A program made the position numbers and the translations under genes. DNA of 64,000 bases from the NCBI RefSeq assembly GCF_044324875.1, contig NZ_CP172185.1; one strand, 5' to 3'. The notes beneath the pieces are model-generated. The model searched no databases. It was not told the DNA's origin and saw only the letters and a list, made by a program, of their open reading frames with translations. Position 1 is the first letter of the stretch; every line of letters starts with the position of its first letter. This document shows, in pieces, positions 1 through 48,707 of this stretch. This DNA is from Escherichia coli. Its GTDB lineage: Bacteria > Pseudomonadota > Gammaproteobacteria > Enterobacterales > Enterobacteriaceae.

Positions 1-1199
1 CCGTGCTGCCGGTGGCGCTCTGGCATGTGAAGCGGATTGGTTGTGTGTTTATATTCATGTGTGCTGCGCGGATGTTGCGCCACACACTGCCCCTTGTGCC
101 AGAGCTGTACCACCGACTGCCCCGCCTTCAGTGACAGACGCTGACCGACCAGTTCGTGTGGAACGGAGTACCAGTGACGGGCATATTCAACGTGGTAGTC
201 AGGGCCAACCTTCACAGCTTTGTATTCCGTGTATTCATAAGGTGCCAGAGGCAGCGGAGAGAGTGCTGGCGCATCCAGTATGCGGAAGCGTTCTGCACGG
301 GTTTGATTGCCGTACCCCTTCATTGGCCGGTTATTCATGTCTGTCAGTAACTCCCTAAGGCGCGCATTCAGCGCCCTGAGCGTGTGGAAGGTTTCATTAC
401 GGATGCGGGCAAGAAGCCATCGTTCAACGATGAGGACGCCGTTTTCTGCTTTTGGTTTATCTTTAGGTTTGCGTGGTCGGGCCGGGATGATAACCGTGCC
501 ATAGTGCTCAGCCAGTGCCTGATAACTGTCGTTGATGACAGGCTCATATCGATCGGCCTTTTTCACTGCGCTTCTGAGGTTATCGGGGATGAGCAGCTTC
601 GGTACGCCGCCCAGGAAGGTCAGGCAACGGCTGTGGGCATTTAACCATGACATCATGTCCTGACCTTCGCACGCTTCAACGTAGGTATAGTTGGACGCCC
701 CCATTACGGCCACGAAGATTGCCACGCGGCGTATCTCACCGGTGTCCGGATTAATAACAGGAACCGTAGGACCACAGAAGTCGATAAAAAGCTTTTCGCC
801 GGCACGATGCTCCTGGCGCATGGAGAGACGTCGCGTTTTTTTCCACTCCCGGTAGCAACGGCAGAAGTGCGAGTATCCCATCGCTTTGTTACCCGCCTGT
901 GCCTTGTATTCCATCCACAACAGTTGCCGCGTCACACCTGGTTTTCTCATTTCCGTATCGAAGTACAACATGTCAGGCATTACAAGCTCTGATGCAAAGG
1001 TGTCTTTGGGCGGAAAAATGAGTTTCTCCAGCGTGTCATGGGATATATCAGCAGGTAATGGCCATGACAGAGAAGAGGCTTTGAAGCGGGCAAGAACCTC
1101 AAAAACGGTTGAGGCGCTGATGTGTAACGTCAGTCCGATACAACGGTTAGTCAGCTTCTTGTCGAACTTGAGCTGAAGGATCTTAAAACAGGTTTCCAT
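1..1199 (-). CDS. istA: IS21-family transposase IstA, C-terminus beyond window edge
   Basis: Minus-strand ATG at 1197-1199 (METCFKILQL...), HTH-like N-terminus, ...MGYSHFCRCYREWKK... and ...PRKPKDKPKAENGV... resembling the IstA DDE region; frame open to position 1. Not in the supplied ORF track because no stop lies in the window. Confidence 0.75.
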   Translation of the reverse strand, partial: METCFKILQLKFDKKLTNRCIGLTLHISASTVFEVLARFKASSLSWPLPADISHDTLEKLIFPPKDTFASELVMPDMLYFDTEMRKPGVTRQLLWMEYKAQAGNKAMGYSHFCRCYREWKKTRRLSMRQEHRAGEKLFIDFCGPTVPVINPDTGEIRRVAIFVAVMGASNYTYVEACEGQDMMSWLNAHSRCLTFLGGVPKLLIPDNLRSAVKKADRYEPVINDSYQALAEHYGTVIIPARPRKPKDKPKAENGVLIVERWLLARIRNETFHTLRALNARLRELLTDMNNRPMKGYGNQTRAERFRILDAPALSPLPLAPYEYTEYKAVKVGPDYHVEYARHWYSVPHELVGQRLSLKAGQSVVQLWHKGQCVAQHPRSTHEYKHTTNPLHMPERHRQH

Positions 1200-1310
1200 A
1201 GTGCTCCTGGATTTTCTCTTTCTGGACATTGACGTCTCCACTGGTTTAAACACGGCAATGGAGACTGTGGTGAAAAGAGTTAATTCCCGGAGTGACTGGC
1301 AGGATGCCAA

Positions 1311-1431
1311 TCAATGATCGGAAGCATGCCAAATCGTGATCGATTGTGATGCCAAACTGTGATCGGAGATGGATGCCAAATCATGATCGATTCGAATGCC
1401 AAACTGCGATCGATTCAGATGCCATTTTGCA
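1311..1431. repeat. IS21-type terminal multiple direct repeats (about 22-bp period)
   Basis: Units atgccaatcaatgatcgga / catgccaaatcgtgatcga / gatgccaaactgtgatcgg / gatgccaaatcatgatcga / aatgccaaactgcgatcga / gatgccattttgca read directly. Confidence 0.7.
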
Positions 1432-1569
1432 GTTCCCCGTTCTTTACATTCAGGCACTTCCGTTTCCTTTAACGTTTTCGTTACTCTCTGAAGCTTGTGG
1501 TATCTGTGATGGCTGATTCCTGCCGTCATACTGCGAAATTCCGGATATCAGACCGTGGAGGATTCTGCC

Positions 1570-2142
1570 ATGCAACGCTGGTTTCTGCCTTTTCTTTCGA
1601 CTCTGTTGCTGTTACAGGGTTGTGTTGCCGCTGCGCTGGTCGGTACGGCTGCTGTGGGTACTAAAGTGTCAGTGGACCCCCGAAGTGCTGGAACGCAGAT
1701 TGATGATGAAATTCTGGAAGCAAGGGTCAGCCGTGTGCTGTCGAAGGACTCACAACTCAGGGGGGATGCGCGAATCATCGTCACAGCATACCAGGGCACT
1801 GTACTGCTGACAGGGCAGGTACCAGACCGTAGTGAAGGTGAAAAAGCCCGTCAGATTGCAGATGGTGTTGAGGGGACTGTGCAGGTATGGAATGAAATAA
1901 GGACGGGAAAACCACTTCGTGCTGATAAAACAGCTACTGATGCGTGGCTGACCACAAAAATCCGGGCACAGTTACTGAAGAGCAGCAGGGTGAAACTGTC
2001 AGATGTTAAGGTACTGACGGAGAATGGTGAAGTCTTTCTTATGGGGAGAGTTACAGAGAAGGAAGGACAGGCTGCAGCTGATATCGCCAGTCGCGTGGCG
2101 GGGGTGAAACACGTCATCACCGCATTCAGTTATATACGCTGA
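1570..2142 (+). CDS. BON-domain lipoprotein, DolP/YraP-like paralogue
   Basis: GGAGG RBS 8 bp before ATG 1570; lipobox LLLQGC; recalled strong similarity to E. coli YraP/DolP (CVAAA.VGTAAVGT..., TENGEVFLMG..., AAADIASRV.GVK). Confidence 0.8.
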   Translation: MQRWFLPFLSTLLLLQGCVAAALVGTAAVGTKVSVDPRSAGTQIDDEILEARVSRVLSKDSQLRGDARIIVTAYQGTVLLTGQVPDRSEGEKARQIADGVEGTVQVWNEIRTGKPLRADKTATDAWLTTKIRAQLLKSSRVKLSDVKVLTENGEVFLMGRVTEKEGQAAADIASRVAGVKHVITAFSYIR

Positions 2143-2147
2143 GTATG

Positions 2148-2170
2148 GAGAGCCCGTTCGTTCGGGCTCT
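2148..2170. terminator. Hairpin between convergent genes (bidirectional terminator candidate)
   Basis: gagagcccg-ttcgtt-cgggctct followed by T-rich tgtattt; lies between the DolP-like (+) and YebF-like (-) genes. Confidence 0.45.
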
Positions 2171-2188
2171 GTATTTAGCTTCATTCGT

Positions 2189-2542
2189 TCATCCCTGGCG
2201 TTGCCAGGTGGCACTTCCGTTCTTACAGTCAACGCTCACACGGTACTGAATATCTGCTTTCTTTCCACGGGCAGTGAGATGCACTGTGATGACATTATCA
2301 CCTTTATTTACCGGCTCACGAAGATTCACCCAGACAACGGGACGCTGCTGACCGAGAATTTCCTGGTCATCTTTCCACTGAAACACCTGTTTCTGGAGAT
2401 AGTCCCGTTTGACGCTGGCTGCAACAGCTGATGCTTCCTGTCCTTCACATCGTGGAAAACTGACGGTTCTGTTTTTTTCAGCGGCCAGTGATGATGCGCA
2501 GATACCGAAGATGAGCAGAATGGAAGAGAGTGCTTTGTTCAT
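2189..2542 (-). CDS. YebF-family small secreted protein (paralogue)
   Basis: Signal peptide; ...VSFPRCEG...ASVKRDY...VSVDCK... pattern recalled from E. coli YebF. Confidence 0.65.
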   Translation of the reverse strand: MNKALSSILLIFGICASSLAAEKNRTVSFPRCEGQEASAVAASVKRDYLQKQVFQWKDDQEILGQQRPVVWVNLREPVNKGDNVITVHLTARGKKADIQYRVSVDCKNGSATWQRQG

Positions 2543-2857
2543 TTACAGGACCTCCACAGGGGATAGTTTCATTGCGGAGTTACATTTTAACAACGTAAAA
2601 CAGCATTTCCCGTAACAATCCTCACATAACGTCTTATCCCGTCACTTCCCGTTTCACATGGACAGAACAGTCTGTTTTTTAACCCGTTTTTTCAGTCATT
2701 TCCATAAACAAATCTTCGCTGACGATAAATCTTTTTTCTGCTTAATGATCGATTTTGTCGATCGATACGATATGTACAATTCATTTTACCAATGAGAAAT
2801 CCGTCTTAAAATTGGACAAATTCATATGTCTGAAGGAAACATCAGGAGAGGTGGATT

Positions 2858-3601
2858 GTGAAAAAGTTACTGGCACTCACTGCGGTAGCTGCGCTTACCG
2901 GTACGTTTTCAACGCTGACGCTGGCAGATGCGGATAAAACCGGTTTCTATATCACGGGTAAGGCTGGTGCATCTGTTATCACTCAGGATAATCAGCGCTT
3001 TAGTCAGGACTTTGGGGATGATGTTTATAAGTATAAAGGCGGTGACAAGAGCGATACGGTTTTTGGTGCTGGCCTTGCGGTGGGATACGACTTTTATCAG
3101 CACTACAATGTCCCTGTACGCACGGAAGTTGAATTCTATGGTCGCGGCTCTGCGAATTCCCGCTATCCACTGGATACATGGGAGTCCCCATTTGGAGATA
3201 GTGGCCGGGAAGACACACAAAACAGGCTCAGCGTGAATACCCTGATGGTGAACACGTATTATGATTTCCGAAACAGCAGTGCTTTCACTCCGTGGGTATC
3301 AGCCGGACTGGGCTATGCGCGGGTACATCATAAGGCAACATACACCGATACCTACTGGAATAAATCAGGCGAAGTAAGTACTTCTGCATTACATTACTCG
3401 GGATATGATAACAATTTCGCATGGAGCCTTGGTGTTGGCGTGAAATATGATGTCACTCCGGATTTCAGTCTTGACCTTGCTTATCGCTATCTTGATGCAG
3501 GTGATTCAACCCTGACGTATAAAGACGGGCAGGATACATATAAATCCTCTGTTGATGTCAGAAGTAACGAATTTACGTTAGGCGCTACATACAGCTTCTG
3601 A
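2858..3601 (+). CDS. tia: Tia/Hek/Hra1-family outer-membrane beta-barrel protein (invasin/adhesin type)
   Basis: Signal peptide, FYITGKAGASV, RTEVEFY, SVNTLMVNTYYDFRNSSAFTPWVSAGLGYARVHHK, NFAWSLGVGVKYDVTPD, LDLAYRYLDAGDS, C-terminal ...TYSF; adjacent to a leoCBA-like operon as in the ETEC tia island (recalled). Confidence 0.6.
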   Translation: MKKLLALTAVAALTGTFSTLTLADADKTGFYITGKAGASVITQDNQRFSQDFGDDVYKYKGGDKSDTVFGAGLAVGYDFYQHYNVPVRTEVEFYGRGSANSRYPLDTWESPFGDSGREDTQNRLSVNTLMVNTYYDFRNSSAFTPWVSAGLGYARVHHKATYTDTYWNKSGEVSTSALHYSGYDNNFAWSLGVGVKYDVTPDFSLDLAYRYLDAGDSTLTYKDGQDTYKSSVDVRSNEFTLGATYSF

Positions 3602-3612
3602 ATGTAATATCT

Positions 3613-3651
3613 GACTACACGTTGTTAAATTCAAAATCGCAGCGTGTAGTC
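3613..3651 (+). terminator. Long-loop hairpin downstream of tia-like gene
   Basis: gactacacg ... cgtgtagtc inverted repeat (9-bp stem, 21-nt loop) followed by tgatttgatagttt. Confidence 0.3.
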
Positions 3652-3687
3652 TGATTTGATAGTTTAATACAACAGACAGGTACCTTC

Positions 3688-3882
3688 ATGGCACTTCCTC
3701 AGCCCCCGGTTACGTTCATTTGTACCAGATGTAAGTGGCGTAAAACCATTGTCCATATGGGATGTACTACTGGATTTTCACATTGTCCTCAATGTGGCAG
3801 TAATTCGGTAAAACGGGAAAATGCTGGTGTTGTTACTTCATTATTTTCCTCCCTTTCATCCGTTTTCATGAAAAAATCCTGA
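3688..3882 (+). CDS. Small zinc-ribbon-like protein (CxxC...CxxC), hypothetical
   Basis: 64-aa ORF with CTRC ... CPQC pairs; directly upstream of the leo-like operon. Confidence 0.3.
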   Translation: MALPQPPVTFICTRCKWRKTIVHMGCTTGFSHCPQCGSNSVKRENAGVVTSLFSSLSSVFMKKS

Positions 3883-3983
3883 CTGCTGTTATTTTTATAT
3901 TGCTGGTACTTTATTAAAATCCGCTAAGGTTTTGTATCAGAAATAATTCTCAGACAGTAATCGTCATTCCATTCCGGGGATTT

Positions 3984-4652
3984 ATGAATACGAAAGAACA
4001 ATTCAACCAGCTTTATGATGATATCAGTAATCAGATACGCCAGACTGTGAATGATATTTCGCAACTGAGTGTTGAGAATGAAAAAGGACAGATACATCTC
4101 AATAAAATACGGGAACAACTACAGGCATTACATGATAACTTCAATCATAAGCTGGATTACCTGAAGGAGCATGCCGAATGGGACAGGTTTACTGTCGCTT
4201 TTTTTGGCGAAACGAATGCTGGTAAAAGTACCATAATTGAGTCGTTGAGAATATTATTTGATGAAACAACCCGTCGTGAATTCCTGAATAATAATCAAAA
4301 AGATTTACAAAAGTCAGAACAGGAGTTAAGTAAAAACCTGGAACAGTTAAGCCATGATTTGGAATGCGTTTATGGTGATATTGTCGATAAATTCCGTGAC
4401 ATTAGTTTGTCTGTCATGCAGTTACGACAAATTGTTGCTGATGAGAGCGCATTACGTATAAAAATGGAAGAAGATGAAAAGAATGCCCGTCTCCTTACAG
4501 AACAGAATGAAAGTCAGGCCCGGCTGAATATTTTACAGCAACAGACGAATACCAAAGCACGTTTCAGATTATTTGTGACGGCAATTATCAGCATGATTGT
4601 GGGAGGATGTGGATTTCTGTTGCTGAATCAAGTATTCGGGAGCTTACAATGA
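3984..4652 (+). CDS. leoC: LeoC-like: P-loop (G1) fragment of a split dynamin-like protein with C-terminal TM segment
   Basis: GETNAGKST Walker A/G1, coiled-coil-like middle, hydrophobic C-terminus; stop TGA overlaps the next ATG (ATGA at 4649-4652). Confidence 0.55.
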   Translation: MNTKEQFNQLYDDISNQIRQTVNDISQLSVENEKGQIHLNKIREQLQALHDNFNHKLDYLKEHAEWDRFTVAFFGETNAGKSTIIESLRILFDETTRREFLNNNQKDLQKSEQELSKNLEQLSHDLECVYGDIVDKFRDISLSVMQLRQIVADESALRIKMEEDEKNARLLTEQNESQARLNILQQQTNTKARFRLFVTAIISMIVGGCGFLLLNQVFGSLQ

Positions 4653-6373
4653 GTAATATTCCATGTTCTGCAGATAATAATCCGGAAAAATATCCGGAAA
4701 CTGTCTGTCAGGAATATAATTGCACAGGCGGCGCGGATGATATCAGGTTCTTTTTTAAAAAAAGTCTGGAGCGTACTGTTAGTTCCGTTATCCGGACCGA
4801 AACATTAAGAAATACTGCAAAACGTGTGGATGGCCTGATCATCGGAACCGGTGAGGCTGATTTTACCAAAGACAACACACACTATAATTTACGCATTGAC
4901 GATAAAGATTTTCAGTTGATTGATGTTCCGGGTATTGAAGGTAATGAAACCTGCTACACACATCTTGTTAAAAAAGCCATTGCGCAGGCTCATCTGGTGG
5001 TTTACGTCAACGGTACCAATAAAAAGCCTGAAACAAGCACCGCAAAGAAGATCAAATCTTATCTGGAATATGGCACTCAGGTTTATCCGTTGATCAATGT
5101 ACGCGGTTATTCTGATGACTATGAATTTGAGGAAGATCGTGTCGCTCTCGAACAACAGGGTAGGGGCGGTGAGGCTTTATGCCAGACTGTTGGGGTGCTC
5201 GCTTCCGTATTAGGGGCGGATGTGTTGCTGAATGGGAACTGTGTACAGGGATTACTGGCATTTTCAGCGTTGGCTTATGACGACAATACACACAGAACAA
5301 CCATTCATCCGTTACGTGATCGAAATCTGGCGGTATATCAACGTGGTTTTTTTAATGTATTTCCTTCCCGTCAGGAAATGCTGACATTCAGCCAGATTGA
5401 TGCCGTCGCTCAGACAATTAAAAATAAGGTCGCAACGTTCCGTGAGGATATTATCGAAAGTAATAAATATAAAGTTCGTGAGACTCTGGATCAATACTTA
5501 CAGGTACTTGAAGAGCAATTAAACAGCCATCACTGCTTTTTACAAAAGACAATACCGGAATTTGAAAAATGCCGGACTGCGTTCAAAAATGCGACTGGTG
5601 AATTTGAACGCCGTATTGCGAACAGTCGTCGCAATCGCTGGAATAGCCTTTTTAATGACCTAGGGAATGCCTGTGATGGTATTGTCGAACATAATTTTGG
5701 TGACAGCAGTGCTATTTCCACACTGATACGTAATGAGTATGAAAAGCGCCGTAAAATGATGGAACAAATGATGCAGGAGGATACTGAAGAGAGTGTAAAG
5801 GTATTACAAGAGCAAACTCTTCAGGCGGTAAATCGTTTGCTGGAAGATATTCACAATGTGGAACTTCAACACCCCCTCAGTTTTGCTAACAGCCGCAGCA
5901 TCGAGTTTAGTGGAGAGATGGTACCTGGTTACGAGCTGGGGATGGCTGATTTCAGTTCAATGGTTTTAAAAATTGGCAGCTATGCAATGTCAGGCAGTGC
6001 AATTGGCAGCATCTTTCCCGTTATTGGTACGCTTGTTGGCTCTGCGGTTGGTGCGTTGCTTGGCATAATAATGACTATTGCGGGTATTTTTACCAGTAAA
6101 GCGTCAAAAATCCGCAAAGCACAAGGAAAAATACGCAACAAGCTGGAGGAAGTGCGGGATAAATCTCTCTGCAGCATACCTGATGAAACCCGCCTCCTGG
6201 TTGCAGCTATTGAAAAAGAACTTGAGTGTGGCCTGCTGCAAAAACTCAACGATATGCAGGTGGATCTGCAACAGCCTGTTGCCATATTCGAAACTCAAAT
6301 CAGTCGAATCACAACATTAAAGAAACAATTGGAGAAAATGCCTTATGGAACAATTCAAACAGTTCAGTATTGA
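4649..6373 (+). CDS. leoB: LeoB-like: remainder of the split dynamin-like protein
   Basis: Translationally coupled to the upstream gene; DVPGI (G3-like) motif; long helical regions and hydrophobic stretch near C-terminus. Confidence 0.55.
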   Translation: MSNIPCSADNNPEKYPETVCQEYNCTGGADDIRFFFKKSLERTVSSVIRTETLRNTAKRVDGLIIGTGEADFTKDNTHYNLRIDDKDFQLIDVPGIEGNETCYTHLVKKAIAQAHLVVYVNGTNKKPETSTAKKIKSYLEYGTQVYPLINVRGYSDDYEFEEDRVALEQQGRGGEALCQTVGVLASVLGADVLLNGNCVQGLLAFSALAYDDNTHRTTIHPLRDRNLAVYQRGFFNVFPSRQEMLTFSQIDAVAQTIKNKVATFREDIIESNKYKVRETLDQYLQVLEEQLNSHHCFLQKTIPEFEKCRTAFKNATGEFERRIANSRRNRWNSLFNDLGNACDGIVEHNFGDSSAISTLIRNEYEKRRKMMEQMMQEDTEESVKVLQEQTLQAVNRLLEDIHNVELQHPLSFANSRSIEFSGEMVPGYELGMADFSSMVLKIGSYAMSGSAIGSIFPVIGTLVGSAVGALLGIIMTIAGIFTSKASKIRKAQGKIRNKLEEVRDKSLCSIPDETRLLVAAIEKELECGLLQKLNDMQVDLQQPVAIFETQISRITTLKKQLEKMPYGTIQTVQY

Positions 6374-8078
6374 AAAACTGGCTGCGATTAATTCGCTATC
6401 ACAGTTGCGCGGAATGTTAGAAATGTTGGGAGATTTGGGGATAGACATCAGTGACGATTTACAAAAAATTACTTATGCAATTAATTCCATCGAATCTGAT
6501 GTTCTGCGTATTGCTTTGTTGGGGGCGTTTTCTGATGGCAAAACCAGCGTTATCGCTGCATGGATGGGTAAGATAATGGATGATATGAATATTTCCATGG
6601 ATGAGTCCTCTGATCGGTTGAGTATTTACAAACCGGAAGGTCTGCCAGACCAGTGTGAAATTGTTGATACACCCGGGCTGTTTGGTGATAAAGAGCGTGA
6701 GGTGGACGGGAAACAGGTGATGTATGAAGACCTGACCAAACGCTATATATCTGAAGCTCATCTGATTTTATACGTGGTTGATGCCACTAACCCGCTAAAG
6801 GAGAGCCACAACGACATCGTAAAATGGGTATTGCGCGATTTGAATAAACTCTCTTCAACCATTTTTGTTATCAATAAAATGGATGAAGTGACTGATCTGA
6901 CAGAGCAGGCGCTGTTTGACGAGCAGGCAGCAATTAAAAAGGCGAATCTTAAAGGTAAATTGCAGCGTGCAGCTGCTCTTACCGCTCAGGAGTGTGATCA
7001 GCTAAATATCGTCTGCATTGCTTCAAACCCAAACGGTCGTGGCTTAACGTACTGGTTTGATAAACCAGAACATTATGAAAGTCGTTCGCGCATTAACGAT
7101 CTTAAAAATGCTGCCACCGACATACTGAAAACTAATGTGCCAGAGGTATTGTTAGCGAAAACAGGTATGGACGTGGTGAAAGATATTGTCATTCAGCGTG
7201 CCACCCAGGCAAGCAGACAGTTCGATGAACTGAATCTGTTTGTTGAGAAGAATGACGAGGACATGTGTCGTTTTCAGAACGACATTAAGCAAAGTCGCAT
7301 TGAGGTTAAACGGCTGGCCGGAGAGTTATTTGAAGAGCTGAACCTGATGGAAAAAAAGCTGATGAGTCAACTGCGTTCACTCGATCTGGACGATATCCGC
7401 CCGTTTATGGACGATGAGCTGGGATATACAGAAGATGGGGTTGGCTTTAAGCTTCATCTGCGCATTGAGCAGTCAGTTCATCGTTTTTTCGAACAGTCGA
7501 AAGCGGTCTCGCAACGCTTATCTGATGATATCACTTGTCAGTTGAGCTCCAGCGAGAGCTTTCTAAGTGGCTTAGGCGAAGGCGCATTTCGTTCTTTAGG
7601 CGGGACCTTTAAGGGAGTGTCGAAAATTAGTCCGGCGACGCTCAAAACGACTATTTTGACCGCACGCGATACGATTGGCAAACTAACGGGATATACCTAT
7701 AAATTTAAACCCTGGGAGGCCACGAAACTGGCCGGAAGCATTTCCAAATGGGCTGGTCCTGTGGGTGCAGTGTTTACGATTGGTTCTGATCTATGGGATG
7801 CCTATAAAGCACACGAGCGGGAGCAGGAGCTGAAAAAAGTAAAAGAATCGCTGGCGAAAATCATTAAAGAGCAGTTTGAATATATCTATGACGTACTGAG
7901 TTCTGATGAGAAAATATTCGCCTTTTTTGCACCGCAGATCCAAAAAATGGAGCAGGTTGTTACTGAGCTGGCAGAGAAAAGCCAGGCTATTCGCGACAAC
8001 CGGCAGAAACTGAGCATTATTCAGACGCAGCTTGCACAACTAATGGTTCCAGCCACAGAAAACCATACTGTCAGATAG
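6345..8078 (+). CDS. leoA: Bacterial dynamin-like GTPase, LeoA-like
   Basis: G1 GAFSDGKTS, G3 DTPGL, G4 NKMD in order; 577 aa; overlaps the end of the upstream gene (operon). Confidence 0.75.
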   Translation: MEQFKQFSIEKLAAINSLSQLRGMLEMLGDLGIDISDDLQKITYAINSIESDVLRIALLGAFSDGKTSVIAAWMGKIMDDMNISMDESSDRLSIYKPEGLPDQCEIVDTPGLFGDKEREVDGKQVMYEDLTKRYISEAHLILYVVDATNPLKESHNDIVKWVLRDLNKLSSTIFVINKMDEVTDLTEQALFDEQAAIKKANLKGKLQRAAALTAQECDQLNIVCIASNPNGRGLTYWFDKPEHYESRSRINDLKNAATDILKTNVPEVLLAKTGMDVVKDIVIQRATQASRQFDELNLFVEKNDEDMCRFQNDIKQSRIEVKRLAGELFEELNLMEKKLMSQLRSLDLDDIRPFMDDELGYTEDGVGFKLHLRIEQSVHRFFEQSKAVSQRLSDDITCQLSSSESFLSGLGEGAFRSLGGTFKGVSKISPATLKTTILTARDTIGKLTGYTYKFKPWEATKLAGSISKWAGPVGAVFTIGSDLWDAYKAHEREQELKKVKESLAKIIKEQFEYIYDVLSSDEKIFAFFAPQIQKMEQVVTELAEKSQAIRDNRQKLSIIQTQLAQLMVPATENHTVR

Positions 8079-8190
8079 ATGCATAATGCAGTTCCGTACA
8101 TCCGAATTTGAATAACGAATACTCTTTCAGAACTATCTGGATTGAAAGGATGCCTTCTGCTAATCATCGGAAATATGGCTTACTTAAGAC

Positions 8191-8400
8191 ATGAGGGATA
8201 AATCAGTGAGATTATTGTTAAAGGGACTGACTGGAATGGTTATGGCCTGGTTGGTGATCTATTTTGGTATGAAATTATTTTTTCTCACAGATCAGATTCA
8301 TCCGGCATTAAGAACTCTTGTCATGCTGGGGATGTTATTTATGTTGATAATGATTCCCTGTGTAATATGTGGTTCTTTTTTACGAAAGAGGCAGAAATGA
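8191..8400 (+). CDS. Small membrane protein (two predicted TM helices), hypothetical
   Basis: 69-aa ORF, hydrophobic segments, basic C-terminus. Confidence 0.3.
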   Translation: MRDKSVRLLLKGLTGMVMAWLVIYFGMKLFFLTDQIHPALRTLVMLGMLFMLIMIPCVICGSFLRKRQK

Positions 8401-8485
8401 TAATTCGTCCTGTAATAATGACGAATCAACAAGAAAAATTGATGCATAAGAATGATACATATACTTATCTGTATTAAAGGATGAT

Positions 8486-8971
8486 TTGATGAACATAAAA
8501 AATATTTTTCTGTTTCTTTTTTTTAGTTTATTAGCAGGTAATGCCTTTGCTGCTGCAACAGTGATGGGGTATTGTGAACTGAAGAATGGAAAAACGCTTT
8601 CTGTATGGGCTGGTGATAATGGAAGTTATAATTATACTTTATATGGCAAAAGTGGGACGACAGAGTTACAGCTAAAAGAAGGATTGTTTGGCGTCAGAGC
8701 TTTTCACTATTATCATTCCATACGTGATGGAGTGGGAGCGTTCAAGTACCTCCGGTTTAATAAAGGTGAATATGATTATGTTGTCATGTCGTATGAGGAT
8801 GGTCGTTCCCCCTATTTTGATGGTGTGATAGTATTCAGAAATGGAAACCGAATTGCTCGTCTCGAATGTGCCCATCCATTTACAGGAGCATTTTCTGTTG
8901 AAGAACTGGATGCAGGACATAATCAGGACAGTGAAGATATGGCTGAATATATTATGAGTAATTTTACCTGA
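8486..8971 (+). CDS. Secreted protein of unknown function
   Basis: N-terminal signal peptide (FLFLFFSLLAGNAFAAA); no recognised motif. Confidence 0.5.
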   Translation: MMNIKNIFLFLFFSLLAGNAFAAATVMGYCELKNGKTLSVWAGDNGSYNYTLYGKSGTTELQLKEGLFGVRAFHYYHSIRDGVGAFKYLRFNKGEYDYVVMSYEDGRSPYFDGVIVFRNGNRIARLECAHPFTGAFSVEELDAGHNQDSEDMAEYIMSNFT

Positions 8972-9105
8972 ATATAATAAATTTAAATATATCAGAATAT
9001 TTTCTGACGATATTGCAATGAAAACTGAATATAATTTTCAGTGGATGAGAAAAACGGACTGATGAAATTATGGTTCTCAGTCCGTTTCATCATAAACTTT
9101 ATCAA

Positions 9106-9870
9106 TCAATCCAGTGTGATTTCTGCAGCCAGTTCTTCTGAGTCTGCATTTGCTATTTTGCTACGTAAGACTGCAACATAAATTACGGCAGGTATTGTAA
9201 CCCTGTAGGCTGTACCACCAACATCCACAAGAGTCCAGATTGCGGTAATCGCCCATCCTACAGGACCAGTTAATACAGCCATTGTTCTGGTCAAAATAGT
9301 ATTACCGGCAAAACTTAATCCTCTTCCGATTAAAGCTTTTAAAATAGCATTAGCCATAATTAATGTAAGCTGATACGATTTGAATCCACCTGCTTTAAAT
9401 ATGAACTGGAATGTTGAAACAAGTGCTTTCGGTGTAAGCCCATCGAGTTTTTTTACACCAATCTCTCGCGCAAATTCTTTCAGTTCATCATCACTCATTT
9501 TTTCAAATGCATCATTGAGTATTTTCAACATGAGGCATTGTTCTATATTTTCAATTGTGCTATTTTTGTTATAGTTAACTTTTAGTTTATCACAAACATC
9601 GGTAAGCACCTCTCTGTATTTAACACCTCGTCCTCCTCTGAGAAGTGTCGCAAAAGTATTACCGCCAAAGCATTGAATTTCAGCTGCAATTTCTCGCCAG
9701 TACTTACTGTGCTGAGGATTATATCTTTTGTAATATTCATTTCCAGAAAGTTCTTCAGTAAAGCGTTTCTTTCCGTCCTTATCATATATTAAGCAATCAA
9801 CCAAATCATTCAGTTCTGCATCAGAACATTTTGATAAAAACTCAAGGTCTTCATCATAACGATATGCCAT
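9106..9870 (-). CDS. YaaW/UPF0174-family protein
   Basis: C-terminal ...GPVGWAITAIWTLVDVGGTAYRVTIPAVIYVAVLR... recalled as characteristic of the YaaW family. Confidence 0.55.
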   Translation of the reverse strand: MAYRYDEDLEFLSKCSDAELNDLVDCLIYDKDGKKRFTEELSGNEYYKRYNPQHSKYWREIAAEIQCFGGNTFATLLRGGRGVKYREVLTDVCDKLKVNYNKNSTIENIEQCLMLKILNDAFEKMSDDELKEFAREIGVKKLDGLTPKALVSTFQFIFKAGGFKSYQLTLIMANAILKALIGRGLSFAGNTILTRTMAVLTGPVGWAITAIWTLVDVGGTAYRVTIPAVIYVAVLRSKIANADSEELAAEITLD

Positions 9871-11051
9871 AAAATTTCCTATTTAAAGGTCAGGTGTTAA
9901 TGCTGACATGCGATTTTGAGACGTATAAATAGTCCTTGTCTATTATATTCTTATCAATTTTATTTTCAATGTTTTTATCTTCTTTTTATACACTCTTAAA
10001 AAGAACCGATTTTATTACCTGAGCATGTAATGTAAAAGTATATGTGTGATGATTAAAGTTTTTATCCTTATTTTTCCTGTAAGGACGAGCTTTCCGTGGT
10101 TGCTGTTCTCGTATGTATGCGGGGTATTACTTTCACTAATGGTTAAAATTCTTTCCTTCCGGTTAAAGCATTCATGTGTTTGTATTTTTCTTTGCTATTT
10201 GTTTTTTAGTACAGAATTTAATTAGTGTGGTTGTGATTTTTGTTGATATCACCACGCGCATTTTATATGAAATAGCCACATAACTTTCAACAAAATATAA
10301 AAATAAAATTATGCTATAGTAAACAACAGATTTTTATGTTTATGAAAGATGACCACTTTTTTAATTTGACTGAATTTTTTAAGATGCTTTTGAGTTGTGA
10401 AATATATTTTTCTTTATTGCTTTTTGGAATGTTGACGGGGCGTAGTTATGATTAATATAACAGAAGTTTCAGGAACGCTTTTTTCTTTTAAATGCCTGCG
10501 CATGACTTGTTCAATAATGTGTTTTCATCATATTTTTTTGGCATCAATACAATAATTAAAGATATAACGTTAAAATATTATTTATTGGCTTTTCCTGATG
10601 GAGTAAAAACAAATGTAACAACTAACTGCATGATAAATAAGTAGAATGGTCAGTATCATGTATATTATTTGGGTATAAGTGGTATTTGTAAAGAATCAGT
10701 TGTGTTACTCCGGAATATATCTCTTTGAGAGAGCAGAAGTGAAACAGATATTCTCTTGAAAGTATTGCATTATCGTTACCGTTTTTATATCAGAGGCTGA
10801 AAATACGTATTTTTATAAACAGGGTGGAGGCATTTTTGTGTTATGTATGGATTTTCAAACCGGGTGAATCATCCAGACAGGTAATAATATAATAAGAAAT
10901 GTTGCTGCCAGGCTAAAACAGGAACGTGTACTTCTGTGAAAATGTTGATGCGAAGCTACCATTATTTGGGGTAGGGTATCTTCGCTCATCAGATGATATT
11001 GAATATGGTCGCCTGAAATCAGAAATTAAAAAATACAAATGGTAGTTAACT

Positions 11052-11078
11052 CCCCACCAACCGCTGTGGTTGGTGGGG
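11052..11078 (-). terminator. Perfect 11-bp-stem hairpin immediately downstream of int, followed by a G8 tract
   Basis: ccccaccaacc-gctgt-ggttggtgggg, then gggggggg; T-run only 15 nt further on the minus strand, so not a canonical intrinsic terminator. Confidence 0.3.
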
Positions 11079-11087
11079 GGGGATGGC

Positions 11088-12281
11088 TTATTTCGTTTGT
11101 ACGTTTTTCTCCATAAGTGAATCAATGTAATCAGCGTACCACTGCATCATTTCACGACGTCCATCGAGATACAGGGCATGATTATAGGTACCCCTGATGG
11201 AGTTTTTATCCACATGCGCTAACTGCATTTCAATCCAGGCAGAATTAAAGCCCTGTTCGTGCAGAATTGTGCTCATTGTGTGACGAAAACCATGGCCGGT
11301 TGCTCTGCCATCGTAACCGATGCGTTTTAGTACCATATTGATGCTGGCTTCACTCATCGGTTTGTTAACATCGCAACGTCCGGGGAATATAAGGCGATAC
11401 TGCCCGGTAAAACGATGCAATTCCTGCAGCAGTGAAATGGCCTGGCGTGACAGAGGAACAATATGATGCCTGCGCATTTTCATTCGCTCTTCAGGGATAT
11501 GCCAGAGTGCGTTGTCAGAATCAATTTCTGACCATTCGGCCAGCCGCAATTCAATCGTTCTGAGTCCGGTCAGCATCAGCAGGCTCGTCGCCATACGGGT
11601 GACAGGACTGCCATGATAGTCAGCGAGCTTCCGGAGAAAAACAGGAAGTTCATCCGCTCTCAGATGGGGAAAATGTGCGGTTTTTGGTGCCGCCAGCGTA
11701 CTGGTCAGTTCTGATGCAGGATTGACAGTGGCACGTCCTGTGGCAATGGCATAACGGAAAATCTGATTGCAGTATTGACGGACCTTGCGTAATTTTTCCA
11801 GAGAGCCACGTTTTTCAATACGACGCAAAATCTCCAGCATTTCCAGCGGGAGGATATCAGTCACGCTCCGGTTGCTCAGATACGGGAAAACGTCTTTATC
11901 CAGCGCTTCCAGTACGCTTCTGGCGTAACTGTCAGACCATGATAAAGATTTATGATGATGCCATTCCATTGCGAGAGCATGAAAGGTGTTGGTGACAGAG
12001 ATTTTCTGAGAGAGTTTTTCCCTTCGCTTCTTTTCACCGGGATCTCCACCCTCGGATATAATTTTTCGTGCATCGTCGCGTCTGGTTCTGGCTTCAGCAA
12101 GGGAGACGTCAGGATAGACGCCGAGGGACAGTTTTTTCTCCTTTCCTGCTGTTCTGTACTTAAGGCGCCAGTAGCGTGCTCCCGTGGTTTTTACCAGCAG
12201 ATATAAACCACGTTCATCAGAAAGTTTATAATCTTTGTCTTTAGGTCTTGCCGTTTCGACCTGTCTGGCTGTAAGTGCCAT
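11088..12281 (-). CDS. int: P4-type tyrosine integrase
   Basis: MALTARQVETARPKDKDYKLSDERGLYLLV...RYWRLKYR...KLSLGVYP N-terminal domain typical of P4/CP4-57 IntA integrases; RBS-supported ATG at 12281; adjacent to tRNA-derived att. Confidence 0.9.
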   Translation of the reverse strand: MALTARQVETARPKDKDYKLSDERGLYLLVKTTGARYWRLKYRTAGKEKKLSLGVYPDVSLAEARTRRDDARKIISEGGDPGEKKRREKLSQKISVTNTFHALAMEWHHHKSLSWSDSYARSVLEALDKDVFPYLSNRSVTDILPLEMLEILRRIEKRGSLEKLRKVRQYCNQIFRYAIATGRATVNPASELTSTLAAPKTAHFPHLRADELPVFLRKLADYHGSPVTRMATSLLMLTGLRTIELRLAEWSEIDSDNALWHIPEERMKMRRHHIVPLSRQAISLLQELHRFTGQYRLIFPGRCDVNKPMSEASINMVLKRIGYDGRATGHGFRHTMSTILHEQGFNSAWIEMQLAHVDKNSIRGTYNHALYLDGRREMMQWYADYIDSLMEKNVQTK

Positions 12282-12457
12282 ATGGGGGCCCCTTAAACTG
12301 ACCGAACACAATGAGCCCCCAAATGTGCCCCCATTTAATGCTTGATTCAGGGGGTGTTCAATAGAATTCGGTGGAGTTCAAAATGTCCGGAACGATTATA
12401 AATCAGTGATTATACATGAATTTCGTGGAGTGCGGGGGATGTGTGTAGAAGTGAAGG

Positions 12458-12507
12458 TGGTGCCCTGACTCGGAATCGAACCAAGGAAACGGGGATTTTC
12501 AATCCCC
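12458..12507 (-). other. att core: 50-nt copy of the 3' end of tRNA-Phe (no D-arm or 5' acceptor strand), not a full tRNA gene
   Basis: Minus-strand read GGGGATTGAAAATCCCCGTTTCCTTGGTTCGATTCCGAGTCAGGGCACCA matches the anticodon arm to CCA end of E. coli tRNA-Phe (recalled) with 2 mismatches; upstream sequence does not fold as a tRNA. Confidence 0.75.
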
Positions 12508-12558
12508 GTGCCATAATTGGCTGTGTCAGTTGGTTACACACCATTGAGGTGTGTACTA

Positions 12559-13437
12559 ATGAAAATACTGCCCGTTGTCTCCACAAAAGGTGGCGAAGGT
12601 AAATCAACACAATCCGCAAACCTGGCTGGTTTTCTCGCCGATGCAGGTATCCGTACCCTGCTGATTGACGGAGATCATGCTCAGCCCACGGCAAGCAACA
12701 TCTTTCCGCTGACATATGAAGCGTCAGCCGGTCTTTTTGAGTTGCTGATGCGCACGGCTGACCTCAGTCATCCCGATAACATCATTTCCCGCACGGCTAT
12801 CGACGGACTCGATCTGATAGTCTCCAATGACCCTCATGAGCAGTTAAAAACTGCGATGCTTCACGCCCCGGATGGTCGTCTGCGCCTCCGGAATGTCCTG
12901 CAGCATCCGCTTTTTCTGAACAACTACGATGTCATTGTAGTTGATTCTCAGGGAGCACGTTCTGTCATGCTCGAAATGATTGTGCTGTCGGCCACTGATT
13001 CGGTTGTCGGGATGGTCAATCCGGTACTCCCTGATGTGCGCGAGTTTATTCGGGGCACTGTCAATGTTATGGAGAACCTGCTGCCTTACCGGGAGCTGGG
13101 GATACCCCTGCCGAAAGTACGCACGCTGGTTAACTGCATGGATTATACGGCACTGGCCAGGAAGACGCTGGATGAGCTGGCCGGAATTATTCAGACCGGT
13201 CGTTACAGCAGACAGTTACCTGAAGGTGCGGTTTCCCTTCTTTCCACACAGATTTACGACCTGAATATTTACAAGCAGGGGCATGCGGCTGGTCAACCCG
13301 TACATCGTCTCGAAAAAGAATCCACACGTCGCAGTGATTCCGCGCTTGTCACGATGCACAGCCTGGCCTGTGAACTCTTTCCTGAGTGGAAACAGGCGTT
13401 TGACGGGCTGCTGGCGAACGGGGGAATACGTCAGTGA
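12559..13437 (+). CDS. parA: ParA/Soj-family partition ATPase of the ICE
   Basis: Deviant Walker A VVSTKGGEGKST; first gene after att, as in pKLC102/PAPI-1-type elements. Confidence 0.85.
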   Translation: MKILPVVSTKGGEGKSTQSANLAGFLADAGIRTLLIDGDHAQPTASNIFPLTYEASAGLFELLMRTADLSHPDNIISRTAIDGLDLIVSNDPHEQLKTAMLHAPDGRLRLRNVLQHPLFLNNYDVIVVDSQGARSVMLEMIVLSATDSVVGMVNPVLPDVREFIRGTVNVMENLLPYRELGIPLPKVRTLVNCMDYTALARKTLDELAGIIQTGRYSRQLPEGAVSLLSTQIYDLNIYKQGHAAGQPVHRLEKESTRRSDSALVTMHSLACELFPEWKQAFDGLLANGGIRQ

Positions 13438-26924: not shown

Positions 26925-27238
26925 CTTGTCGCTCCGGCGACCACCAATGTTCCATAGTGGCCTGTGAGGAACGCCTTCGGGTGGCCCATGTCGCTTCAGC
27001 GACCACCAATGTTCCATGTGGCCTGTGAGGAACGCCTTCGGGTGGCCCACGTCGCTCCGGCGACCACCAATGCTTCATCTGACCTGTGAGGAGCGCCTTC
27101 GGGTGGTCAGTTTTACACCTCCTGAGCCTGAAAGGAGCTGTGCGTACTGAAGGGATATATTCCCGGAAGTACGGGCAAATCTGCACACCTTTGAGAGCAG
27201 ATGTCACTGCGGTTTTCCGTGATGATGAAGGCTTTTTT
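26925..27238 (+). repeat. Structured repeat element, copy 1 (3 tandem ~60-bp subunits plus ~130-bp conserved tail ending in a T-run)
   Basis: Subunits GTCGCTCCGGCGACCACCAATGTTCCAT(a)GTGGCCTGTGAGGAACGCCTTCGGGTGGCCCA(t/c); tail ...TTTTACACCTCCTGAGCCTGAAAGGAGCTG...GATGATGAAGGCTTTTTTT; near-identical copies at 60942 and 63735. Confidence 0.85.
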
Positions 27239-46619: not shown

Positions 46620-48707
46620 ATGCGAATAACCACTCTGGCTTCAGTAGCCATCCCTTGTCTCGGATTTTCAGTCAGCAGCATGGCTGCGGAAGATGTGATG
46701 ATAGTCACCGCATCCGGCTATGAAAAAAAATTAACCAGTGCAGCTGCGAGTGTTTCGGTGATCAGTCAGGAGGACTTGCGATCCAGCCAGTATCATGATC
46801 TTGGGGAGGCACTGAGATCCGTAGAGGGGGTGGATGTTGAAAGCGGTACGGGTAAAACCGGTGGACTGGAAATCAGCATCCGTGGAATGCCTGCCAGTTA
46901 TACGCTGATACTGATTGATGGTGTCCGTCAGGGCGGGAGCAGAGACGTAACCCCGAACGGTTTTTCTGCCATGAACACGGGGTTTATGCCACCTCTGGCC
47001 GCCATCGAACGTATTGAGATTATCAGGGGCCCCATGTCCACTCTGTACGGCTCTGATGCCATGGGGGGCGTGGTGAATATCATCACCAAAAAGAATGCAG
47101 ACAAATGGCATTCTTCAGTTAATGCCGGGCTGAACCTGCAGGAAAGTAACAAATGGGGGAACAGCAGCCAGTTTAATTTCTGGAGCAGCGGCCCCCTGGT
47201 GGATAATTCTCTCAGCCTGCAGGTACGTGGCAGCACGCAGCAGCGACAGGGCTCATCGGTCACATCACTGAGCGGCACCTCAGCCACGCGCATCCCTTAT
47301 CCAACAGAGTCACAGAATTATAATGCAGGTGCTCGTCTTGACTGGAAAGCAACGGACAAGGATATGTTCTGGCTTGATATGGATACTGCACGACAGCGTT
47401 ATGATAACCGGGACGGCCAGCTGGGCAGCCTTACTGGCGGTTATGATCGTACCCTGCGCTATGAACGTAATAAAATTTCGGCAGGTTATGATCATGCATT
47501 CACCTTCGGAACCTGGAAGTCATCCCTGAACTGGAATGAGACGGAAAATAAAGGCCGTCAGCTTGTACGCAGCGTACTGAAGCGTGATAAATGGGGACTT
47601 GCCGGCCAGCCGAGGGAGCTTAAGGAGTCGAATTTTATCCTGAATTCCTTACTGCTTGCACCTGTGGGTGAATCTCACCTGGTTACTGTCGGTGGTGAGT
47701 ACCAGAACTCATCCATGAAAGACGGGGTTGTTCTCACCAGTACAGGCGAAACCTTCCGGCAGAAAAGCTGGTCGGCATTTGTTGAGGATGAGTGGCATAT
47801 CACGGATGCGGTTGCACTGACTGTGGGCAGTCGTTATGAACATCATGAGGTGTTCGGAGGACACCTCAGTCCGCGGGCATATATGGTCTGGGATGTGGCT
47901 GATGAGTGGACGCTGAAAGGTGGGGTGACCACGGGATATAAGGCACCCGGCATGGGGCAGTTACATAAGGGGATCAGCGGTGTGTCCGGTCAGGGGCGTA
48001 CGAATCTTCTCGGTAACCCGGACCTGAAGCCGGAGGAGAGTGTCAGCTATGAAGCGGGCGTGTATTACGATAATCATGCCGGTCTGAACGCCAATATCAC
48101 GGGCTTTATGACAGAGTTCTCCAACAAGATCGTATCTTATTCTATTGATGATAATACCCGCAGCTATACAAACAGCGGAAAGGCCAGGACTCAGGGTGTG
48201 GAGTTTGCCGGCACACTGCCTCTGTGGTCAGAGGATGTGACGCTGTCTCTGAATTATACCTGGACGCAGAGTGAACAACGGGATGGGGATAATAAAGGTG
48301 CACCACTGAGTTACACCCCTGAGCATATGGTGAATGCGAAACTGAACTGGCAGATTACTGAAGATGTGTCATCATGGCTGGGTGCCCGTTACCGCGGGAA
48401 AACGCCACGTTTCACCCAGAATTATTCGTCACTCTCAGCTGTACAGAAGAAAGTGTATGATGAGAAAGGTGAATATCTGAAAGCCTGGACGGTACTGGAT
48501 GCGGGCATGTCGTGGAAAGTGACGGATGCACTGACGCTGAATGCAGCGGTGAATAATGTGCTTAACAAGGATTACAGTGACGTAAGTCTGTATCGTGCCG
48601 GCAGTGGTACGCTTTATGCGGGTGATTACTTCCAGACGGGGGCATCGACAACAGGTTATGTGATACCGGAGAGAAATTACTGGATGTCGCTGAGCTATCA
48701 GTTCTGA
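46620..48707 (+). CDS. iha: TonB-dependent outer-membrane siderophore receptor, Iha/IrgA-like
   Basis: Signal peptide, TonB box region ...EDVMIVTASGYEK..., plug ...IERIEIIRGPMSTLYGSDAMGGVVNIITKK..., C-terminal ...YWMSLSYQF; N-terminus MRITTLASV... recalled as Iha-like. Confidence 0.75.
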   Translation: MRITTLASVAIPCLGFSVSSMAAEDVMIVTASGYEKKLTSAAASVSVISQEDLRSSQYHDLGEALRSVEGVDVESGTGKTGGLEISIRGMPASYTLILIDGVRQGGSRDVTPNGFSAMNTGFMPPLAAIERIEIIRGPMSTLYGSDAMGGVVNIITKKNADKWHSSVNAGLNLQESNKWGNSSQFNFWSSGPLVDNSLSLQVRGSTQQRQGSSVTSLSGTSATRIPYPTESQNYNAGARLDWKATDKDMFWLDMDTARQRYDNRDGQLGSLTGGYDRTLRYERNKISAGYDHAFTFGTWKSSLNWNETENKGRQLVRSVLKRDKWGLAGQPRELKESNFILNSLLLAPVGESHLVTVGGEYQNSSMKDGVVLTSTGETFRQKSWSAFVEDEWHITDAVALTVGSRYEHHEVFGGHLSPRAYMVWDVADEWTLKGGVTTGYKAPGMGQLHKGISGVSGQGRTNLLGNPDLKPEESVSYEAGVYYDNHAGLNANITGFMTEFSNKIVSYSIDDNTRSYTNSGKARTQGVEFAGTLPLWSEDVTLSLNYTWTQSEQRDGDNKGAPLSYTPEHMVNAKLNWQITEDVSSWLGARYRGKTPRFTQNYSSLSAVQKKVYDEKGEYLKAWTVLDAGMSWKVTDALTLNAAVNNVLNKDYSDVSLYRAGSGTLYAGDYFQTGASTTGYVIPERNYWMSLSYQF

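Follow-up and report, generated by a model that had tools for sequence, protein, structure and literature searches.

The 64,000-nucleotide stretch of Escherichia coli DNA analysed here (the window) is very probably a chromosomal tandem array of two unrelated integrative elements, an ICE and a tia/leo island, at one tRNA-Phe gene. The closest complete genome points by analogy to pheV as this gene, with pheU also possible. An integrase, half-tRNA and soj arrangement produced by tandem insertion is already well known. The two elements meet at a tRNA-Phe remnant, and the features around this junction are as follows.

11088-12281, minus strand: P4-type tyrosine integrase, intP4 of GI-pheV, 397 aa, with Arm-DNA-bind_3, Phage_int_M and Phage_integrase domains
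12282-12457, no strand: spacer from the intP4 start codon to the remnant CCA (island-side att arm), colinear with int-tRNA spacers elsewhere
12458-12507, minus strand: remnant of the tRNA-Phe 3' part, displaced native copy, 50 nt, tRNA positions 27-76, identified by comparison with real pheV and pheU
12458-12480, minus strand: 3'-terminal 23 nt of tRNA-Phe, TTCGATTCCGAGTCaGGGCACCA in tRNA sense, the direct-repeat core of intP4 GI-pheV islands, here with 1 mismatch
12486-12507, minus strand: probable crossover segment of the ICE integrase, tRNA positions 27-48 (anticodon stem-loop and variable loop)
12508-12558, plus strand: soj-side att arm of the ICE, "type A", GTGCCATAATTGGCTG..., 51 nt from the remnant core to the soj start codon
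12559-13437, plus strand: ParA/Soj, 292 aa, the first ICE gene, with the ICE backbone next

The first-pass annotation had placed a 50-nt tRNA-Phe 3'-end copy, with two mismatches and no 5' half, between an integrase and soj, and comparison with real genes (pheV in L006 and L010, pheU in L009) confirmed this at 12458-12507. The remnant extends from the anticodon stem to the CCA, and its tRNA sense lies on the minus strand with the CCA end (12458) toward the integrase and ParA/Soj on the other side. The chance expectation for a 50-nt tRNA-Phe match was 0 in 100 shuffles. The two mismatches to E. coli tRNA-Phe lie in the acceptor stem (12466 G>T, tRNA position 68) and in the variable loop (12488 C>A, tRNA position 46). 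They are more likely lineage SNPs than sequencing errors because other "private" differences of the window, at loci exclusive of 12466 and 12488, are 100% common to independent assemblies. ARAGORN found no tRNA in the 64-kb window, Rfam at the gathering threshold gave no tRNA match in it, and the 23-nt and 50-nt repeats each occur there only once. The exact 50-mer is not found in GTDB representative genomes, and matches across the junction reach at most 95.2% among complete RefSeq E. coli genomes. A promoter and terminator scan of 12150-12700 returned nothing, which neither supports nor opposes a soj promoter in the junction.

The integrase on the left of the remnant was correctly called P4-type, as can be seen from its domain architecture and its resemblance to PRK09692. 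The open reading frame reaching 12311 is a mechanical TTG extension only, and the gene is 11088-12281. A P4-type integrase located 3' of tRNA-Phe sequence and a 23-nt core with 1 mismatch, both features of GI-pheV (intP4) islands, are present; TTCGATTCCGAGTCaGGGCACCA is the core reported for these islands (Table 1, PMC11537424). The spacer at 12282-12457 is colinear with the int-pheV spacer in L010, L011 and L014 and the int-pheU spacer in L009, with alignments of 99.8-99.95% through the spacer, and is homologous to the spacer in MEW, CM2 and MS1679. To the left of the integrase lies the cargo of the island, named from PGAP annotations in CM2 and MEW, NCBIfam matches and Pfam families on identical loci.

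1-1435, minus strand: IS21-family element, istA part, running off the left edge of the window; interrupts or truncates the tia/leo island
1570-9870, no strand: island cargo of GI-pheV type, comprising the next eight features
1570-2142, plus strand: dolP-like BON lipoprotein
2189-2542, minus strand: yebF-like
2858-3601, plus strand: tia
3984-4652, plus strand: leoC
4649-6373, plus strand: leoB
6345-8078, plus strand: leoA
8486-8971, plus strand: hypothetical protein
9106-9870, minus strand: DUF3944 protein

The island is cut at 1435 by the IS21 element, which shows 99.4-99.9% identity to annotated IS21 istA among the best-matching E. coli records listed. A 62.9-kb contig (L023, GCA_036632015.1), which does not extend to the far end of the ICE, is 100% identical over window positions 1-12142, and IstA/IstB are called there at the same place as the IS21 element. 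No second core copy that could serve as the distal direct repeat (attR) of the island was found in the window at up to 3 mismatches; the repeat may be located beyond the left edge of the window, or may have been lost. An attR is missing in 34% of GI-pheV islands (PMC11537424).

On the other side of the remnant, ParA/Soj was proposed to begin an ICE backbone, and backbone genes indeed come after it.

13438-64000, plus strand: ICE backbone and cargo, with NCBIfam matches above curated cut-offs; the ICE continues past the window

The backbone within the window includes SPI-7-type DnaB (dnaB_SPI-7_type, score 684.6 against an NCBIfam curated cut-off of 655), PFGI-1-type ParB (ICE_PFGI_1_parB, 378 against 143.75), STY4528-family (STY4528_fam, 387.3 against 130) and PFL_4669-family proteins (ICE_PFL4669, 234.3 against 110.7), TopoIII, TraD (conj_TOL_TraD, 1086.7 against 647.55), TraC_PFL_4706 (traC_PFL_4706, 1401.1 against 520.6) and TIGR03755 (546.8 against 270.45). 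By these signature backbone proteins the ICE is assigned to the PFGI-1 / pKLC102 / SPI-7 / ICEEc2 class. Its cargo in the window consists of a TonB-dependent receptor, an HNH endonuclease with an EcoRI-family methylase, ccdAB and an internal gene with an integrase domain. Cargo differs among the relatives of the ICE, and the segment with the HNH endonuclease and EcoRI-type methylase is fully common only to TUM1886.

The far end of the ICE can be seen in these relatives. Window positions 52000-64000 are 99.8% identical to TUM1886, whose element runs 33 kb further and reads [fragment]-ParA ... TraI, a 366-aa XerC/D-like integrase, intact tRNA-Phe and yqgA; relaxase TraI, a type IV pilus and the tRNA-adjacent tyrosine recombinase are all present there. 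CM2 combines the int-fragment-ParA layout of the window with the far-end integrase beside an intact pheV, the ends being ~86 kb apart, and MS1679 has the same far end with the ICE integrase beside an intact tRNA-Phe. The three genomes thus bear out the expectation that soj and int sit at opposite ends of integrated elements of the pKLC102/PAPI-1 type. By analogy, the window's own ICE would end in int-pheV about 33 kb past position 64000. The P4-type integrase and the ICE far-end integrase share 25% identity over 123 aa and have different family matches, and from these comparisons the two are unrelated beyond the catalytic fold.

At least two ICE variants, types A and B, can be distinguished by att arm and integrase, and the type of the soj-side arm co-varies with that of the far-end integrase. 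The type A arm of the window is identical in CM2, TUM9803, TUM1886 and L013, and over at least its first 40 nt in L017-L022, whatever adjoins on the left. TraI-int(type A)-tRNA-Phe was found in 8 complete genomes; seven of these are the complete genomes that carry the window's soj-side arm, all of which (7/7) have the type A integrase.

The ICE and the tia/leo island are independent, as each has been found alone at tRNA-Phe in other genomes. The 397-aa integrase occurs in identical form, together with the same tia/leoCBA island at 99.8-99.96% nucleotide identity, next to an intact pheV-yqgA in three assemblies (L010, L011, L014) and next to pheU in a fourth (L009), and no ICE is seen at any of these junctions. 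Strain MEW carries a related tia/leo island at pheV without an ICE. The same integrase and island also adjoin two ICE variants, type A in L013 and type B in L012, L015 and L016. Conversely, the ICE occurs without the island: its soj-end fragment adjoins an apparent native pheV terminator followed by kps in L017, L019 and L021, or by a gspM-type gene (yghD in the TUM1886 annotation) in L022. TUM1886 has this flank plus an IS110 fragment ahead of kps, and in TUM9803, L020 and MS1679 the fragment adjoins other integrases and islands. By this distribution, its domains and its low identity to the ICE integrase, the 397-aa enzyme is the recombinase of the tia/leo island and not of the ICE. The first-pass annotation had suggested that the tia/leo/IS21 cargo was the far end of a single large element, a view that does not hold when the int-tia/leo unit and the ICE each stand alone elsewhere.

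The T-stem of the tRNA distinguishes the chromosomal copy from the copy borne by the ICE. The pheV beside the ICE integrase (TUM1886, CM2, MS1679) has CT>GG at tRNA positions 49 and 50 and AG>CC at positions 64 and 65, which together make two compensatory T-stem pairs. The native T-stem is always found in the soj-end fragment, and also in the pheV of genomes without an ICE there. The remnant of the window is native at all four diagnostic positions and is therefore a recombinant attR, not attP. The segment 12486-12507, 5' of these four positions, is the only stretch common to the soj-side arm junction and the ICE-type pheV, and the distribution of T-stem variants suggests that the ICE crossover falls within it.

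These observations can be combined into a probable order of yqgA - pheV - ICE (XerC/D-like int, TraI, type IV pilus ... ParB, DnaB, Soj) - 50-nt remnant - GI-pheV (intP4, DUF3944, leoABC, tia ... IS21). The ICE would recombine within the anticodon stem-loop and variable-loop part of tRNA-Phe, its integration swapping the 3' part of the gene for its own functional copy with the compensatory T-stem variant. The native 3' part, together with whatever was downstream, would be pushed to the soj end of the ICE; in this lineage the downstream resident would be the P4-integrase island with tia/leoCBA. The remnant would then serve as attR of the ICE (probable core 12486-12507) and attL of the island (3'-terminal 19-23-bp core, 12458-12480, PMC11537424), and soj and the P4-type integrase would be neighbours through an accident of tandem insertion, not across attP. 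We infer that the ICE entered a pheV already occupied by the island. The island could instead have integrated later into the attR remnant of the ICE, and the local structure alone fits either order of arrival.

A further suggestion, for which the odds are rather low, is that the 50-nt remnant is a working two-in-one att site that couples the fates of both elements, with the ICE integrase using the anticodon-loop half and the P4 integrase the 3'-terminal half. If true, the ICE could bring tia/leo to new hosts through composite excision or Hfr-like transfer, and the occurrence of a 99.9%-identical island at both pheV and pheU could be explained. The two substitutions of the remnant, which in tRNA sense are C68A and G46T, also bear on this. 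The first disrupts acceptor pair G5-C68 and the second is located in the variable loop, so that the pheV left behind by a departing ICE would be defective, making loss of the ICE unfavourable.

Somewhat less probable still is a functional composite formed by accretion, in which the tia/leo island now travels with the ICE as a passenger, both being mobilised together through composite excision or Hfr-like transfer, and the junction survives as a relic inside a single larger mobile element. The int-fragment-soj junction does recur in several assemblies and with two ICE variants, Hfr-like transfer of chromosomal DNA is driven by ICEs at pheV/pheU (PMC13127887), and the near-identity of the islands at pheV and pheU points to recent movement. 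However, both elements are common alone, and the recurrence can be explained by clonal descent and independent ICE arrivals. In addition, the probable core of the ICE (anticodon stem-loop region) lies outside the 19-23-bp distal repeat of GI-pheV islands (PMC11537424), leaving the ICE integrase without an obvious outer site, and the window contains no outer repeat.

The label of an attP-type junction, under which the window would derive from one large ICE in its excised, circular or episomal state, circularisation having joined int and soj, is very improbable. The local order of int, tRNA 3' fragment and soj does resemble the attP of PAPI-1/pKLC102-type elements, and PAPI-1 expresses its soj when in circular form (review PMC2704930). 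A true attP would nevertheless show the ICE-type T-stem arm and the ICE int flank, and the window shows neither: the remnant T-stem is chromosomal, the flank left of the CCA matches the pheV-proximal spacer of the island rather than the ICE int flank, and the adjoining 397-aa integrase is not the 366-aa XerC/D-like enzyme that relatives carry at the far end of the ICE. The soj-side arm adjoining the core is present but common to attP and attR, and hence does not discriminate. Moreover, the soj module had no match in 72,556 plasmid records, and identical junctions are located in multi-Mb chromosomal contigs (L012, CM2). The predicted true attP (ICE-type arm, core and soj arm) had no exact match in JGI metagenome contigs, an uninformative result that supplies no positive control for the circular form. 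A tandem pair of copies of the same ICE, with the left neighbour as the int end of a second copy, is the least credible reading: tandem amplification is known in related elements such as the clc element (as cited in PMC2704930), but the 11 kb left of the junction hold no ICE backbone gene, the left integrase differs from that of the ICE, and the left segment is a stand-alone island at pheV and pheU elsewhere. Of the three alternatives offered earlier, the one retained is thus that of two distinct islands arranged in tandem at a Phe-tRNA site, while the excised or episomal form and tandem copies of one element fall to the foreign integrase, the chromosomal T-stem and the finding of each element alone.

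Arrays of integrative elements at one att site are represented by ICESt1/CIME-type accretion and SXT/R391 tandems. As in these arrays and in that of clc, two site-specific elements here share one tRNA-derived repeat between them. Unlike them, the integrases here would be unrelated and would each use a sub-site of its own within the tRNA 3' part, so the array would not have arisen from one recombination system acting twice.

Both partners resemble described systems. The pheV and pheU genes are insertion hotspots for intP4 GI-pheV islands and for ICEEc2 (PMC11537424), and ICEs at pheV/pheU have been reported in clinical E. coli (PMC13127887). ICEEc2 of E. coli BEN374 is placed in the pKLC102/PAGI-2 family (Roche et al. 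2010, as cited in PMC11537424, PMC6761156 and PMC13127887). By description rather than by sequence, the ICE of the window is like ICEEc2 in its location at an E. coli tRNA-Phe gene, in having ParA/Soj and a XerC-like integrase at opposite ends, the latter beside the tRNA, and in its SPI-7-type DnaB, PFGI-1-type ParB, TopoIII, TraD and TraC_PFL_4706; near-identical relatives also show the type IV pilus and TraI. As in PAPI-1/pKLC102 of Pseudomonas aeruginosa, soj and int lie at opposite ends when integrated and a tRNA 3'-end repeat flanks the element. Only 51 nt separate the soj start codon from the att core, consistent with a dependence of soj expression on sequence across att, as in PAPI-1 (PMC2704930). 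The target here is tRNA-Phe, whereas theirs is tRNA-Lys (PMC6761156), and the junction of the window is not attP but an integrated attR fused to another island.

The island likewise shares with intP4 GI-pheV islands a P4-type integrase directly 3' of tRNA-Phe and a 23-nt 3'-end core (PMC11537424). Its tia and leo cargo is like that of these islands, among which intP4.3 islands are reported to carry tia (PMC11537424), and of the tia/leoA PAI of ETEC H10407 (PMC7545054), although the latter is described at selC and not pheV (PMC7545054). Unlike GI-pheV islands, it adjoins a dead remnant only, with about 85 kb of ICE between it and the presumed live pheV, and its distal attR is not in the window.

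Nothing here is new in kind. For annotation, the value of the locus is that the order int - half-tRNA - soj is not evidence for an episome or circular form; to discriminate, one must ask if the integrase belongs to the element itself and if the tRNA arm is element-borne or chromosomal. The locus also illustrates the build-up of elements at pheV, where a self-transmissible ICE lies beside a small virulence island (tia, leoABC). Given the Hfr-like chromosomal transfer driven by ICEs at pheV/pheU (PMC13127887), this tia/leo neighbour could be mobilised.

Three features define the junction between the left-hand and right-hand elements:

11088-12281, minus strand, P4-type integrase of 397 aa with Arm-DNA-bind_3, Phage_int_M and Phage_integrase domains
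12458-12507, minus strand (tRNA sense), tRNA-Phe remnant, CCA end toward the 397-aa integrase and anticodon end toward ParA/Soj
12559-13437, plus strand, ParA/Soj, followed by the ICE backbone genes

The remnant is the reverse complement of the 3' part of E. coli tRNA-Phe over 50 nt with two mismatches (chance expectation none); it begins in the anticodon stem and runs through CCA (tRNA positions 27-76), and the 5' half is absent. Comparison with real genes (pheV of strain MEW and of three contigs, pheU of one contig) confirmed the copy and its position as described in the first-pass annotation, and domain content bore out the P4-type designation of the integrase. ARAGORN and Rfam called no tRNA gene in the whole window, and no further copy of the remnant repeat occurs within the 64 kb. 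The mismatches are 12466 G>T (tRNA C68>A) and 12488 C>A (tRNA G46>T). Neither variant base is present in the native arm, the ICE-type arm or any relative examined, and the changes suggest that a dead remnant is decaying; C68>A would disrupt the G5-C68 acceptor pair. Eight substitutions (1835, 2746, 2772, 11044, 12466, 12488, 16930, 20411) separate the window from the near-identical locus L013, five of them G:C>T:A transversions (1835, 2772, 12466, 12488, 16930) and two within the remnant. Those within 1-12142 (1835, 2746, 2772, 11044) are 100% common to two independent assemblies, L023 (a 62.9-kb contig of GCA_036632015.1, 100% identical over 1-12142) and L025, and are thus lineage SNPs, not errors.

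From 12559 to the window end, matches above NCBIfam curated cut-offs to SPI-7-type DnaB, PFGI-1-type ParB, the STY4528 and PFL_4669 families, TopoIII, TraD, TraC_PFL_4706 and TIGR03755 assign the right-hand element, on backbone content, to the pKLC102/PAPI-1/SPI-7/ICEEc2 class. The complete chromosome of E. coli TUM1886, 99.8% identical to window 52000-64000, carries an ICE of ~85 kb that has the corresponding 50-nt fragment and ParA at one end; at the other come a type IV pilus operon and TraI, then a 366-aa XerC/D-like integrase, intact tRNA-Phe and yqgA. Soj and the ICE's own integrase therefore lie at opposite ends of the integrated form, in agreement with the placement given at first pass. 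The window's 397-aa integrase shares only 25% identity with the 366-aa ICE integrase, over 123 residues. The order TraI, type A XerC/D-like integrase, tRNA-Phe was found in eight complete genomes, seven of which are exactly those sharing the window's soj-side arm, whereas ICE copies with the other arm (e.g. MS1679) have a different far-end integrase. The arm and the distant integrase therefore vary together, the pattern that an att arm should show with the recombinase acting on it.

The ICE cargo includes a 695-aa TonB-dependent receptor (46620-48707; NCBIfam PRK13486, 1539 bits, full length) between traC and TIGR03755. A segment at 55641-57983 and about 58200-58800, with an HNH endonuclease and EcoRI-family adenine methyltransferase and then ccdAB, is found in TUM1886 and absent from most other ICE copies, which cover only 70% of 52000-64000. 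STAXI (four copies) and EFASI (one copy) RNA motifs exceed the Rfam gathering score on the plus strand (26927-27233, 60945-61117, 61642-61764, 63740-63911); two of the STAXI copies are found downstream of TopoIII, and the remaining motifs lie on either side of an internal gene annotated 'integrase domain-containing' (61883-62839).

The first-pass annotation labelled the junction attP-type, implying a circular or tandem element. In TUM1886, CM2 and MS1679, pheV beside the ICE integrase differs from native tRNA-Phe at positions 49,50 (CT>GG) and 64,65 (AG>CC), two compensatory T-stem pair changes (C49-G65 to G-C, U50-A64 to G-C). Copies of pheV rebuilt in this way lie in three compared loci:

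45793-45868 of L004
6294-6369 of L007
7282-7357 of L008

The soj-end fragment has a native T-stem in every case compared, so the ICE supplies its own functional tRNA-Phe 3' part, displacing the chromosomal one to the soj end. An attP would unite the soj-side arm, the ICE-type T-stem and the ICE integrase flank. The window junction combines the soj-side arm with a native T-stem and the island's integrase-proximal spacer, and the adjoining integrase is not that of the ICE; the attP label was rejected, and the junction is therefore a recombinant attR. The T-stem variant distribution would confine ICE strand exchange to tRNA positions 27-48 (12486-12507). For intP4 islands the reported core takes in the 19-23 nt at the 3' end of tRNA-Phe (PMC11537424), corresponding to 12458-12480. 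With these distinct intervals, the remnant would contain two separate recombination cores; it is at once attR of the ICE and attL of the tia/leo island.

At the type B ICE junction, RefSeq annotates a 78-nt 'tRNA-Ser' composed of tRNA-Phe remnant and ICE arm (MS1679, L005 13344-13421), also in APEC 102026, GPEC673, VTB96937v and FDAARGOS_1287, and as 'tRNA-OTHER' in E24377A. The type B arm start (GCCCGTAAC...) is similar to the 5' strand of the tRNA-Phe acceptor stem. No tRNA is called by ARAGORN at this junction, so the annotation is probably a pseudo-tRNA artefact.

Exact-sequence look-up placed the window's integrase in many assemblies, always with the DUF3944-leoA-leoB-leoC-tia-yebF-like-dolP-like block at 99.8-99.96% nt. 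This island adjoins intact pheV and yqgA without the ICE in L010, L011 and L014, intact pheU in L009 (GCA_017047135.1), the type A ICE arm in L013 (99.957% identical to window 1432-22281) and the type B arm in L012, L015 and L016. The L009 site is identified as pheU by its dsbD side on the K-12 map. Near-identical islands (99.9% nt) at both genes imply recent movement between them or recombination between pheU and pheV. Strain MEW carries a related tia/leoCBA island at pheV with the ICE absent there. This fits the published GI-pheV class, whose defining feature is an intP4 integrase adjacent to pheV; intP4.3 islands are reported to carry tia (PMC11537424). An IS21-family element (1-1435, istA) ends at about 1435, exactly where similarity to CM2 and other island copies starts, and therefore inserted into or truncated the island in the window's lineage; L023 and L025 share the junction. 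In CM2 (L001 1-6000) the island's distal side is continued by sodC, pilin/fimbrial genes that are only partial, and yggE, which is truncated and stands beside argO, suggesting rearrangement or inversion at the island's far end in this strain.

Left neighbours of the ICE soj-end fragment are many and varied: sequence resembling the native pheV terminator, then kps; the same flank with an IS110 fragment ahead of kps (TUM1886); the same flank, then a gspM-type gene (annotated yghD in TUM1886); an island with a 420-aa integrase; and an island for raffinose/sucrose that likewise has an integrase of its own. An incoming ICE thus displaces any DNA downstream of pheV. With the island in four contexts and the ICE beside many neighbours, the two are independent, and the proposal that the tia/leo/IS21 cargo is the distal end of the same large element fails. 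Of the first-pass alternatives only the third, two different islands in tandem at a Phe-tRNA site, holds; each also occurs without the other. The closest complete analogue, CM2, has the order tia/leo, int, fragment, ParA at 95-98% identity, and TraI, XerC/D-like int, pheV, yqgA and speC ~86 kb from that junction, a chromosomal tandem array. The soj module had no match in plasmid records. The window ends inside the ICE, and by analogy its own int-pheV end would lie beyond that edge; the gene may be pheU instead of pheV. Either the ICE inserted into a pheV that already had the P4 island next to it, or the island arrived second and used a native-type remnant; because the same island is found both at intact pheV and next to two ICE variants, the more likely order is a resident island with ICEs incoming later.

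Tandem arrays of this sort, pairing an ICEEc2-like ICE with an intP4 GI-pheV island, belong to a well-documented kind and recur in public genomes. Where pheV has been rebuilt by the ICE, as in L004, L007 and L008, the host therefore expresses an ICE-derived tRNA-Phe variant. The 12466 change sits in the P4-type core and might reduce island excision, effects of a kind discussed in PMC11537424; excision of the ICE would pass C68A on to the restored pheV.
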